Shown in pieces: positions 29,879 through 63,239 of a DNA stretch of 64,000 nt; the first letter of the stretch is position 1, and each line of letters opens with the position of its first letter. The notes beneath the pieces were generated by a model. It searched no databases. It saw nothing but the letters and a program-made list of their open reading frames with translations, and was not told the origin of the DNA. The stretch is from positions 1,344,001 through 1,408,000 of the forward strand of contig OY969564.1 of assembly GCA_963701095.1 (NCBI GenBank), read 5' to 3'. This DNA comes from an uncultured Methanoregulaceae archaeon (lineage in GTDB: Archaea; Halobacteriota; Methanomicrobia; Methanomicrobiales; Methanospirillaceae). Made by a program: the position numbers and the translations under genes.

Positions 29879-30895
29879 TCACCCCTGCTTGCTCTGAACG
29901 CTCACAAACTGGATTGCGGGCGAGCGAACAACATGTTCTCCCTGTCGTATTGCCGGGCGGATACGGATAAGACGCTTTGCCGGGCCTGGTATAGAGCCCT
30001 TGATAACAACGTACGCGTTCCTGAGAACACCATAGTTCAGGAAACCTCCAGCCGGTGTGATCTCTGCGCCGTTCTCACCAATTTTCAAAATACGCTTGTT
30101 GAACTCGGTACGCTGCTGGTACCCCATCTGACCGCTCTGCGGAACTTGCCAGCGGACGTGGTGGGGATTCCAGGGTCCAAGAGTACCAACATGACGCTCT
30201 TTTCCACCAACAGAATGTTTCCTCTTTCGAAGAGTAACACCCCAGCGCTTGACAGGTCCCTGGGTGCCTTTACCGATTGTAATCGCAGTAATATCGGCAT
30301 ATGCACCGGTCTCAATTATATTGTTAAGCCGGAATTCCGTTCCCAGCAGTCCAAGGGCGTACTCGTATTGTTTTGCAATATCGCCACCGGCTATTTTGAT
30401 CTCCATAAGATCGGGCACTTTTTTCGGTACTCCGCTTATGATTGCAGGCTGGGTATATGCAAGCACATAAAGCTCTGCCAGCAGTCCAGCCGCTAGTGCG
30501 TCTGTACATTTCTTCTTTGCCGAAGTACTGTCATAGTTCTTGTGTACCGTTACACGACGGGAGAGCTGCTCGTCCATCGGCTCTGCCCAGATTTCCGTGA
30601 ACGCATGTCTACCGTAGGTATCCTGTGAATAAGCCCGTATAGCGGCCACTTTCATAGTCGGGATTTCGATGATCGTAACCGGGACCATGATCTCCTTACC
30701 TTCTGTCGGGCTGCTCTTGTGGTCATCAACCATGAGAACATGCGTCATCCCCACTTTATAGCCTGCAAAGCCCAACAGCGCGGGTGCGGTACCGTTGCGC
30801 TGTGGCCAGGACTTGTATTTTGGTATGGGGCTCTGTGCACGTTTTCGTGGACTGTATGCCAGTGAGCCTCGGCGTGGTCTGTTTATCTTTGGCAT
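29879..30895 (-). CDS. rpl3: 50S ribosomal protein uL3
   Basis: [34 protein letters not shown]. Confidence 0.98.
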
Positions 30896-30915
30896 GTGTC
30901 AATCATTCCTTTGCA

Positions 30916-31396
30916 TTCGTGTTTTGGATTTTTGCTAGACACGAACTAGAGATATGAATCCGAGACTGAAGTGTTCTCACTTGCCTGTCCGGTAAGCCAA
31001 CGCGCGATCCGGTGTCATCAGGCACACATCATTTCCGCTTTTCGAGGCGGTTGTGCTTTGCCTATGAACTTGTCGGCCAGAAACCCAGAAGCACAGGAAT
31101 AGAAATATTTCCATGCTTCAACGCAGTTCTGGTATTTTTCTCGCGAAAGAAGACCCTGACATTGACGCATCCCCTGAATTCAATCAGGGGAATAGGCACG
31201 TTATCATAACGTCCACCTTTACGTCACAGTCAGATCCAACTCTGTCAGCCCGTTGTGACGGATCACAACTCCTTCTCGGGATCCTCCTCATCCATGGGGA
31301 GGTCACCAATCGGGAAATACCCACGGCAATACCATTTCCGGGGTTGTTTCGGATCTGGTTCCGCCGTTACTGTTCCTGTCTCACAGACTGAAACAG
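30916..31396. ncRNA. Candidate structured RNA (long leader of the rpl3 operon, or an antisense RNA)
   Basis: No credible ORF; at least nine stem-loops tile the region (see findings). Confidence 0.55.
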
Positions 31397-31423
31397 CAGG
31401 GATATCCCCATATCGGCTTCCGT

Positions 31424-31452
31424 AAATATTGATTAAAAGGACATATATATGT
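31424..31452 (-). promoter_or_regulatory. Probable promoter of the ribosomal protein operon
   Basis: Minus strand ATATATATGTCCTTTTAATCAATATTT resembles the S-layer upstream TATATTAAGTCTTTTACAAATATT. Confidence 0.5.
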
Positions 31453-31528
31453 ATGCCAGTGTTCCGGGCACTCCACCCTTACTCGCAAAAGACTACTCAC
31501 GAAGAGCATCACTAACATCGTGGGAAAC

Positions 31529-31933
31529 TTATCCGAAATAAATTTCTCCTTCGTCGGTGATATATATCTGTACATCTTCGCAGATACACCGTGCCTTATA
31601 GGACTGGGGACGTGCTTCCCTGAGCCGGTTGATCAGGGAAATTGTATCATATTTTACTTTAATTCTGGCTTTTTCGGCTTCTGCAAAGATCATACCTGGA
31701 ACCTCAAAGAGATCGGTTCCTGATGGAATCGTGCAGAGATGTGTTGCATCAAGAGTGTACAAAAATTCGAGCGTTTCTTTTGCCCGTCGGATATTTTCCA
31801 TCGCAGACTTTTCAATAGTGCACACATTCGCTTTTGAAGTGCTGATGATATCGGCAATCTGCTGTTGGGTCATTCCCTGTTTCCGGTACCGGAGTACTTC
31901 CATTTGCCTGTCGGTGAGAAGACCATCTTTCAT
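31529..31933 (-). CDS. tfx: Tfx-family DNA-binding protein
   Basis: LTDRQMEVLRYRKQGMTQQQIADIISTSKANVCTIEKSAMENI HTH. Confidence 0.88.
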   Translation of the reverse strand: MKDGLLTDRQMEVLRYRKQGMTQQQIADIISTSKANVCTIEKSAMENIRRAKETLEFLYTLDATHLCTIPSGTDLFEVPGMIFAEAEKARIKVKYDTISLINRLREARPQSYKARCICEDVQIYITDEGEIYFG

Positions 31934-32271
31934 ACTATCAATTCCATTCCAGAAACTTAAACACTTTTCGTTAACATTTCCCCCCATGCCAAAATGATAG
32001 GGTGCCGGATCCCCAGAATATACTTCCTGAAAAAATTGGTTTTACTGCACGTTATGCCAGAATCTCACAAGATCTGTCAACAATGTTGGAAGATTATAGA
32101 AAGCAGAGATTCGAAGCCATTTAAAATCGAACCCGGGTATGGATGAGAAAAACACGATGCAGCCGCAATAAGCAGAGAACCGCGTATCCGGCGTAAAAAT
32201 TGATTTCAAAATCTTTATAAGAATACCGGGTCATAATATCGTGCTATAAAACAAATAGAGGTGAAATTTCA

Positions 32272-39297: not shown

Positions 39298-39369
39298 GGA
39301 TCCATGGGGTAGAGGACATCCTCTTGGGCTTCGAACCCAAGGACGCGGGTTCGATTCCCGCTGGGTCCG
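39298..39369 (+). tRNA. tRNA-Arg(TCG)
   Basis: Acceptor GGATCCA/TGGGTCC, anticodon arm TTGGG-CTTCGAA-CCCAA, T-loop TTCGATT. Confidence 0.95.
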
Positions 39370-46905: not shown

Positions 46906-46978
<73 letters not shown>

Positions 46979-51218: not shown

Positions 51219-51302
51219 GCTGAGGTAGTCTAGCGGTAAGGCGCAGGCCTGGAAAGCCTGTGGTGCGAAAGTGCCTCGGGGGTTCAATTCCCCCCCTCAG
51301 CG
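51219..51302 (+). tRNA. tRNA-Ser(GGA)
   Basis: Acceptor GCTGAGG/CCTCAGC, anticodon arm CAGGC-CTGGAAA-GCCTG, long variable arm. Confidence 0.95.
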
Positions 51303-54551: not shown

Positions 54552-54625
54552 GGGCCCGTAGCATAGCCCGGTGGTGCGCCCGGCTGATAACCGGGAGGTC
54601 ATGCGTTCGAATCGCATCGGGCCCA
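54552..54625 (+). tRNA. tRNA-Ile(GAT)
   Basis: Acceptor GGGCCCG/CGGGCCC, anticodon arm CCCGG-CTGATAA-CCGGG. Confidence 0.96.
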
Positions 54626-61519: not shown

Positions 61520-61534
61520 GGTATCACGAGAAAC

Positions 61535-61841
61535 GGGGACATGTTATCGGTCGACTGTACGTTACTCCTTTCACCAGCGTACTCATCCTCCGCCCCGTTA
61601 CCCCATGGGCGCCGTATGTCTGCGGTAAGTCTGCTCCCTTCCGGGCCTGAACCGGTTCCCGCAGTGACAGGTCGCCATTCCCTCCGGAACTTTGATACCT
61701 GGCCATCGACCTCATGGGACGAGGTTTCAACGTCAGAATACACAGGCTCCAGCAGATCGTTGCAGCCTTCTTCAAACTTCGCCCCCCGCGTACCGACGGT
61801 TTCGGGTTACAAGTGACGCCGAGCCACCCGGGCTAGTCCCC
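61535..61841 (-). ncRNA. ffs: Archaeal signal recognition particle (7S) RNA
   Basis: 5' GGGGAC pairs with 3' GTCCCC; Alu-domain TGTAACCC; helix 8 CAGGCCCGGAAGGGAGCAG; about 307 nt. Confidence 0.95.
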
Positions 61842-61930
61842 ATATATCATGATCTGCCGGTCAATAAATCCTTGTTATATTTGGACTGCTCCCCTACGTC
61901 GCTGCTCGGAAGGTCATATTCAGCGCACAG

Positions 61931-63086: not shown

Positions 63087-63161
63087 TGGGCCTGATGCGA
63101 TTCGAACGCATGACCGCCCGGTTATGAGCCGGGCGCTCTAACCGGACTGAGCTACAGGCCC
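63087..63161 (-). tRNA. tRNA with CAT anticodon, probably tRNA-Ile2
   Basis: Anticodon arm CCCGG-CTCATAA-CCGGG; acceptor GGGCCTG and T-arm nearly identical to tRNA-Ile(GAT) at 54552; no intron. Confidence 0.9.
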
Positions 63162-63166
63162 ATAAG

Positions 63167-63239
63167 CGCCGCCAACAGGACTCGAACCTGTGACATGCTG
63201 GTTAACAGCCAGCCACTCTACCAACTGAGTTATGGCGGC
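63167..63239 (-). tRNA. tRNA-Asn(GTT)
   Basis: Acceptor GCCGCCA/TGGCGGC, anticodon arm GCTGG-CTGTTAA-CCAGC. Confidence 0.96.

Follow-up and report, generated by a model that had tools for sequence, protein, structure and literature searches.

In Escherichia coli, the leader of the S10 operon is regulated by L4. Could a comparable leader stand at the head of the L3 operon in archaea, where little is known about feedback control of this kind? The closest described system is the Rfam family RF03135 (L4-Archaeoglobi), which was introduced as a candidate ribosomal-protein leader (Eckert and Weinberg, 2020; PMC7247131). In that paper, the S10 leader of E. coli is cited as a precedent, and uL4 is the published guess for the ligand. 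According to the same paper, about 54% of the RF03135 examples lie inside PF02598 genes and about 46% lie in no gene, and the family was graded '?' (borderline) as a leader by its authors because of these mixed locations. One intergenic example had no similarity to the PF02598 gene in BLASTX, and the mixed locations are left unexplained there. The PF02598 family itself includes fly Ptch and human SPOUT1, for which it was shown that they place m3U in 28S rRNA, at its peptidyl-transferase centre (PMC11641110). That paper also notes archaeal homologues and m3U at the equivalent place of haloarchaeal 23S rRNA, and suggests that these homologues make it.

Here, we analysed a window of 64,000 nucleotides from an uncultured Methanoregulaceae archaeon (contig OY969564.1), with the focus on the gap of 633 nt (30896-31528) between the genes tfx and rpl3. 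Both genes are on the minus strand. The rpl3 gene (29879-30895; Pfam PF00297, 289.5 bits) is the first gene of the rpl3-rpl4-rpl23-rpl2 operon, and it is directly followed on the minus strand by matches to PF00573 (L4), PF00276 (L23) and PF03947 plus PF00181 (L2). Its upstream neighbour tfx (31529-31987) matches PF14601 (TFX_C) with 115.3 bits. Among the 48 genomes collected from the order, tfx is upstream of rpl3 in 45, and the tfx-rpl3 stretches range from 410 to 1595 nt (partial in three, in which tfx is off the contig). We consider it probable that the interval is the sense-strand 5′ leader of the rpl3-rpl4-rpl23-rpl2 operon, and that it is the relic of a PF02598 methyltransferase gene; its most likely role would be that of a protein-binding platform in cis. 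The identity and the origin of the leader are proposed with good confidence.

The whole window was scanned against Rfam at gathering thresholds, and eight matches were obtained, one of which falls inside the gap. This is RF03135, located at 31156-31233 on the minus strand, with 50.9 bits (gathering score 34.5), an E-value of 2.7e-07 in the window search and a match that spans model positions 1-85 of 85. As in the described family, the motif lies upstream of the rplC-rplD-rplW-rplB operon and on the strand of that operon. The leader belongs to the subset of about 46% that has no overlap with PF02598 (figure from PMC7247131). However, the Rfam model spans 78 nt of a conserved core of ~285 nt, and to the published motif this locus adds a hairpin found across the order (P6), a helix found in the genus (P5) and a genus-specific 5′ domain. 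The centre of the leader is thus already catalogued, and what is new is the extended architecture, the predicted start and the origin as a gene relic. The original prediction had proposed an undescribed large ribosomal leader as one of three options, and had counted both a match to a known Rfam family and a decayed protein gene against itself. A leader on the sense strand behind a TATA box is indeed what we find, but it is not undescribed, since its centre is RF03135, and both of the outcomes counted against the prediction turned up, the leader being a gene relic as argued below. In a limited literature search, no published statement was found that the intergenic RF03135 examples are gene relics.

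A permissive Rfam scan of 30700-31700 gave seven further matches, all far under their cut-offs, and no other leader family matched over the region at E up to 10. The C/D-box and H/ACA small RNAs among the candidates were rejected by their Rfam gathering scores (sR7, 17.5 vs. 37; sR33, 14.6 vs. 37; sR53, 13.3 vs. 49; SNORA41, 17.7 vs. 80). Elsewhere in the window, the archaeal SRP RNA (RF01857, 180.9 bits) is located at 61533-61843 on the minus strand, and there are six tRNA genes, at 39298-39369, 46906-46978, 51219-51302 and 54552-54625 on the plus strand, and at 63087-63161 and 63167-63239 on the minus strand.

Between the start of rpl3 (30895) and the stop of tfx (31529), there are only short ORFs. 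The gap was matched in 21 of the 24 other genus genomes searched, and the genus alignment, A1, contains 21 sequences. Across these genus members, no ORF on either strand keeps its place, length or frame, no conserved leader peptide was found on either strand, and there is no 3-base period in the variability of the columns (0.70/0.72/0.77 in the frame of a 92-aa antisense ORF), in agreement with the earlier claim that no credible ORF lies between rpl3 and tfx. The 92-aa antisense ORF, at 31113-31391 on the plus strand, is present at roughly the same place in 13 of the 21 genus members, with different starts and frames. It was rejected as a gene, having no codon periodicity and no conservation as a protein, and is a by-product of a conserved sequence that is poor in stop codons.

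A TATA-box promoter block, GCATA..T.TATAT, is located at 31443-31456 on the minus strand and is invariant in 21 of 21 genus sequences (columns G73-T86 of A1). The TATA-like element proposed earlier at 31441-31452 falls in this block. About 25 nt downstream of it, the conserved core opens with an invariant GGAAGCCGAU in the 21 genus sequences. Because of this distance and because the invariant block begins there, the transcription start is predicted at ~31421 (within 31418-31424, minus strand), the first G of GGAAGCCGAU. A TATA-like box is also found ~25-30 nt before the same start-proximal sequence in two relatives with an intact PF02598 gene (G030 and G050). The leader would then be ~525 nt long, from ~31421 down to 30896 on the minus strand. 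Its conserved core of ~285 nt (31138-31421) ends sharply near 31138 in A1 and is followed by a segment of variable hairpins (31007-31137, minus strand), which is poorly conserved in A1 and contains no T run of five or more in this genome. The last part is a conserved block adjoining rpl3 (30896-31006, minus strand; columns q522-633 of A1), with part of the hairpin 30989-31012 (loop AUCGCGCGUUGGCUUA) and the hairpin 30916-30945; the ATG is preceded by a Shine-Dalgarno-like AAAGGAAUGAUUG.

The conserved core is predicted to fold into two domains on the minus strand. Domain 1 (31305-31417) consists of P1 and P1c, which enclose the hairpins P2 (31369-31397) and P3 (31324-31366). In P1, 31406-31417 pairs with 31305-31315 through 11 pairs, with 98.7% of the cells paired, two-sided changes in two pairs and invariant G-U pairs; two-sided changes are found in six of six pairs of P2 and in two of nine pairs of P3. 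Between the domains is the variable hairpin P4 (31283-31302, minus strand), where three of five pairs change on both sides and 81.6% of the cells are paired. Domain 2 (31138-31282, minus strand) contains the closing helix P5, the hairpin P6, P7 and the Rfam motif (P8-P11). Here, P5 is formed by 31270-31278 with 31142-31150 (CGAGAAGGA with UCUUUCGCG), P6 is located at 31252-31269 (GUUGUGA-loop-UCACAAC), and the small P7 is located at 31239-31249. Over the 21 genus sequences, 96.2% of the cells pair in the consensus fold and 20 of its 77 pairs show two-sided changes; these native values were reached by none of 500 shuffles, and slid controls pair at 39-51%. Note that P5, P6 and most of P8 are uninformative within the genus, since they never vary there.

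Of nine stem-loops that had been listed by eye, eight are real in the sequence, and five of these are parts of conserved helices: 31170-31191 corresponds to P11, 31198-31212 to the inner part of P10, an inner hairpin at 31284-31303 to P4, 31323-31367 to P3 and 31370-31396 to P2. Of the three other real hairpins, 31035-31050 and 31088-31119 belong to the variable part and 30916-30945 adjoins rpl3. For 31222-31260, however, the comparison gives P6, P7 and P8, and the listed stem-loop is not the conserved fold. In addition, the near-invariant loop AUCGCGCGUUGGCUUA holds UUGGCUU, to which AAGCCGA at the leader's 5′ end (31411-31417, minus strand) is complementary, and the bases of AAGCCGA are those that form P1 with AUUGGU. 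An alternative long-range pairing could be formed in this way; covariation cannot test it, because both partners are invariant or nearly so.

How far does the fold reach beyond the genus? R1, the model of domain 2, has a single match in the genome, at this locus, with 155.1 bits. The model has full-length matches in 47 of the 48 order loci and matches in 41 of 151 genomes of the phylum. In the order alignment obtained with R1, which is fitted to the model, 94.5% of the cells pair and two-sided changes occur in 26 of 44 pairs; for helices 4-8 in 47 order sequences, also in a model-fitted alignment, the count is 13 of 26. When 30 order sequences were aligned by MAFFT, blind to structure, P6 and P10 alone were recovered (14 pairs). 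The P5 arms across the order pair slightly better with their native than with foreign partners (-4.42 vs. -3.39 kcal/mol). On the basis of this recovery and this slight difference, P6 is claimed for the order and P5 for the genus only. The pairing of P5 amounts to -7.8 to -10.2 kcal/mol in the genus, compared with -1.0 to -3.5 kcal/mol in the intact-gene relatives. With the model R2, the complete domain 1 was found at all 21 genus loci and, with 46.9 bits, in a single sister genus; elsewhere, the matches were weak and partial (12.8-14.6 bits; G030, G040, G050 and G069). As judged from these matches, domain 1 is specific to the genus and one sister genus.

The origin of the leader is suggested by its relatives. 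Outside the order, 16 of 17 loci have the fold inside an ORF of ~265-300 aa whose end is ~10-75 nt short of rpl3 (one of these ORFs is shortened by its contig end). Three ORFs were tested, one of them from a different class (214 bits) and the others from the order, and all are PF02598 (190.5-214.3 bits). Within the order, PF02598 is present in three of 61 genomes (two of 22 genera) and contains no stops. The three genes occupy the gap between tfx and rpl3 or, if the contig stops short, the place immediately ahead of rpl3, and carry full-length R1 matches inside the reading frame. The homologous counterpart of the leader's fold is a coding stretch for roughly residues 110-155 of the intact proteins. 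The fold of the other classes retains the sequences of the P5 arms, coding for R-E-G and F-S-R there, and has no P6. In this single-contig genome, no PF02598 was found at E up to 10. Since the intact gene of the relatives carries the fold at this place and the genome has no such gene, the leader is regarded as a relic of the PF02598 gene.

A direct comparison with the gene gives the following picture. The first 22 nt after the predicted start are identical at 19 of 22 positions to the 5′ UTR of two intact genes (G030 and G040), and the third intact gene aligns with the start-proximal stretch over 28 of its letters. These local alignments have z-scores of 4.1-5.2, and single shuffles tie the score in two of the three comparisons, so that they are marginal alone. 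Loss of the gene is indicated by the relatives within the order that have it intact, together with the start-proximal sequence that they share with the leader. A custom HMM built from 16 ORFs gave E above 10 against the gap of this genome; against other genus gaps its matches were weak (E of 0.0014 at best) and did not extend beyond the part that the fold encodes. Between the gene and the 3′ half of the leader, no similarity was found (z 0.6-3.5). Read by eye in the old frame, the fold here gives REGVV.xHNG, and then the frame is lost. The relic reading consequently rests on position, collinearity and relatives, because there is no protein or DNA similarity beyond the fold and the 22-nt stretch. 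Compared with PF02598/SPOUT1, the leader occupies the position of the gene and its fold is homologous to part of the coding stretch, but it has no reading frame and no detectable protein similarity. The frame would have vanished, and the start-proximal sequence and the mid-gene fold would have been retained. In addition, 31019-31058 on the minus strand weakly resembles the P6-P8 part of the fold in the intact-gene relatives (z 3.5 for G040 and 0.6 for G030), which could be a partial internal duplication or chance.

The loss seems to have been repeated. On the Rpl3 tree, a quick single-protein tree of 54 rows from which two genus rows with a short rpl3 reading were left out, the presence of the gene needs at least three changes, of which the starred branches force at least two; if only losses are allowed, at least five are needed by our own count. 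The fold is present in every lineage of this tree that lost the gene. In the two genus relatives left off the tree (L011 and L021, genomes G005 and G017), rpl3 is split between frames and its tblastn matches are in pieces, which is probably an assembly error. Repeated gene loss with the RNA kept is strong comparative evidence that the RNA is functional. It would also explain the oddity of RF03135, half in genes and half in no gene: the in-gene location would be ancestral, and the order would have lost the gene repeatedly and kept the RNA. A broader proposal, possible but rather unlikely in our estimation, is that selection at the head of the archaeal L3 operon acts on the RNA fold and not on the gene around it, that the fold arose in the PF02598 coding sequence and outlived several independent losses of the gene within the order, and that in the genus, released from coding constraint, it gained P5 and a new 5′ domain, the domain being put together partly from the dead 5′ UTR.

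Then, what might the leader do? The fold persists through repeated gene loss, is on the strand of rpl3 and is located upstream of the operon; therefore, a cis role tied to the operon is indicated. The leader would be transcribed from the invariant TATA box at 31443-31456, its two-domain core may act as a cis-acting platform for a protein encoded in the operon, with uL4 as the candidate, and the bound protein would feed back on the expression of the operon. This ribosomal-protein feedback is advanced tentatively, with a chance that we put at slightly under one half, and uL4 is named by analogy with the S10 leader of E. coli. Both are structured leaders ahead of an operon encoding L3, L4, L23 and L2. 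However, no homology between them was detected in the scan at E up to 10, the archaeal fold would have arisen inside a coding gene, and in this genome the first gene is not preceded by a terminator hairpin with its U run. An effect on elongation or on transcript stability is more plausible than blocking of the ribosome-binding site, because the fold is 242 nt before the ATG; a non-systematic look identified no helix in which that site would be hidden. Should uL4, uL3 or some other product of the operon prove to be the ligand, this would be the first archaeal L3-L4 autoregulatory leader of wide distribution, and would plainly illustrate how a regulatory RNA can descend from a coding exon. An enlarged and strand-assigned structure with a predicted start is now available for the L3-L4 operon.

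Mimicry of an rRNA binding site is unsupported, since neither sequence nor model similarity to the rRNA operon of the genome was found. By blastn-short, the best match of the leader to this operon on the same strand has 22.3 bits (shuffles average 22.0), and on the complementary strand, as a measure of rRNA pairing, again 22.3 bits (shuffles average 22.3). The rRNA locus was also searched with R1, filters off, and the best score was 7.1 bits.

The lack of rRNA mimicry speaks for a different role in cis, in which the element would sense no ribosomal protein and would instead govern stability or processing, as a protective 5′ structure or a nuclease entry site. In its processing version, the site would once have separated the methyltransferase message from the ribosomal-protein message. 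The distance of 242 nt from the start codon and the lack of a conserved terminator suit such a role, and in the relatives the fold is within the upstream coding region, a sensible place for such a signal. However, nothing observed favours processing, the contigs discussed below cannot reveal RNA ends, and the very high conservation of unpaired stretches such as GGGCUGACAG suggests a specific partner instead of a generic structure. We consequently regard this role as improbable, though it deserves more weight than the explanations that follow, and prefer a protein-binding platform.

It is less probable still, and in our view distinctly unlikely, that the core is released or terminated as a trans-acting small RNA of ~285 nt, for example in ribosome biogenesis, with the promoter of the operon closer to rpl3. 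The core does have an invariant promoter to itself, and its conservation stops sharply on the 3′ side, at ~31138. Between domain 2 and the ATG, T runs of at least five are found in six of the 21 genus members, several of them behind a hairpin, and part of the genus has a weak TATA-like ATTAATC in the conserved block, ~60 nt before the ATG. In this genome, however, there is no such T run downstream of the core, and its clade has ATTCAT where others have ATTAAT. Moreover, complementarity to the rRNA operon is at the chance level given above, the fold of the relatives sits within an mRNA, and rpl3 and the core are joined by an unbroken RNA-library contig. No terminator between domain 2 and the ATG is conserved among the 21 genus members. 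As for the T runs, four loci (L006, L015, L009 and L019) have a terminator-like hairpin with 5-7 U in the variable segment, ~137-152 nt before rpl3, and two further genus members have a U run in that segment. These hairpins may reflect attenuation or a separate rpl3 promoter in some species.

The transcript data for a long leader come from four metatranscriptome runs of two studies, in which rpl3 and the leader are covered by contigs of close relatives with ~95% identity. One RNA-library contig is unbroken from 29922 to 31420, that is, from the interior of rpl3 to the core; it is unstranded, and DNA carry-over was not controlled for. This contig fits a long sense leader starting near 31421, insofar as unstranded contigs can. 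Three further observations were set aside as evidence, given runs with neither a DNA nor a silent-stretch control and a single depth figure per contig: no contig covers ~31421-31553, contigs end at 31400-31420 in two studies, and the leader contigs are deeper than the rpl3 contigs.

Which strand carries the structure? The original prediction favoured the antisense strand, and it had raised a cis-antisense structured RNA or a DNA-level structure. For the core (31139-31421), the minus strand folds with -118.8 kcal/mol and z -5.27, and the plus strand with -101.2 kcal/mol and z -4.58 (100 dinucleotide shuffles). By the same number of shuffles, domain 1 has z -5.29 on minus vs. -2.37 on plus, and the two strands are about equal in domain 2 (-4.42 on minus vs. 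-4.56 on plus), where the energy is lower on minus. The variable segment (31007-31137) beats its shuffles on both strands (z -3.79 on minus and -3.29 on plus), and 30896-31006 as a whole has no significant structure (z -0.6 on minus and -1.7 on plus, 100 dinucleotide shuffles). The core thus folds better than its shuffles on either strand, and the part next to rpl3 does not. For the genus alignment, the consensus energy is -149.3 on the sense strand vs. -120.3 on the antisense strand, and 42 pairs, holding 233 G-U cells, were found on the sense strand only. The ratio of G-U to A-C cells is 253:9 in the genus and 223:26 in the order, with the counted fold itself predicted on the sense strand; for the helices predicted on both strands, it is 51:26. 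When the consensus fold is applied to this sequence alone and read on minus, its pairs are 64 Watson-Crick, 13 G-U and no A-C.

A structured RNA on the plus strand, antisense to the leader in cis, or a structure at the DNA level would draw on the z-score of the whole 633-nt gap, which is better on plus (-4.43 vs. -2.84; 20 shuffles), and on the hairpin 31035-31050 of the variable part, which shows a G-U pair and a UUCG loop on plus. It should be noted that the whole-gap fold takes in ~107 nt upstream of the predicted start, and that its energy is nonetheless lower on minus (-220.5 vs. -201.5). Since the consensus energy, the z-scores and the G-U polarity of the core all favour the sense strand, the antisense RNA and the DNA-level structure are unsupported; the sense-only helix pairs and the Rfam match on minus also speak against them, as does the plus ORF at 31113-31391, which is not conserved as a protein. 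We therefore consider them very improbable. The claim of better folding on the antisense strand does not hold for the core, the whole-gap z-score being the only value in its favour, and the caveat attached to it, that folding by eye on the plus strand can bias the polarity, was justified. That the leader is just a neutral, decaying pseudogene remnant with no present function has a negligible chance, for although it stands in place of a lost gene, the rest of that gene is undetectable while the fold can be aligned across the order and the phylum with two-sided pair changes, and is kept wherever the gene was lost on the Rpl3 tree.

Finally, no PF02598 gene was found in this genome or in 58 of the 61 order genomes, and most members of the order are thus predicted to be without a SPOUT1-family enzyme. 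If m3U at the peptidyl-transferase centre is the product of the archaeal homologues, the modification should be missing from most of the order.
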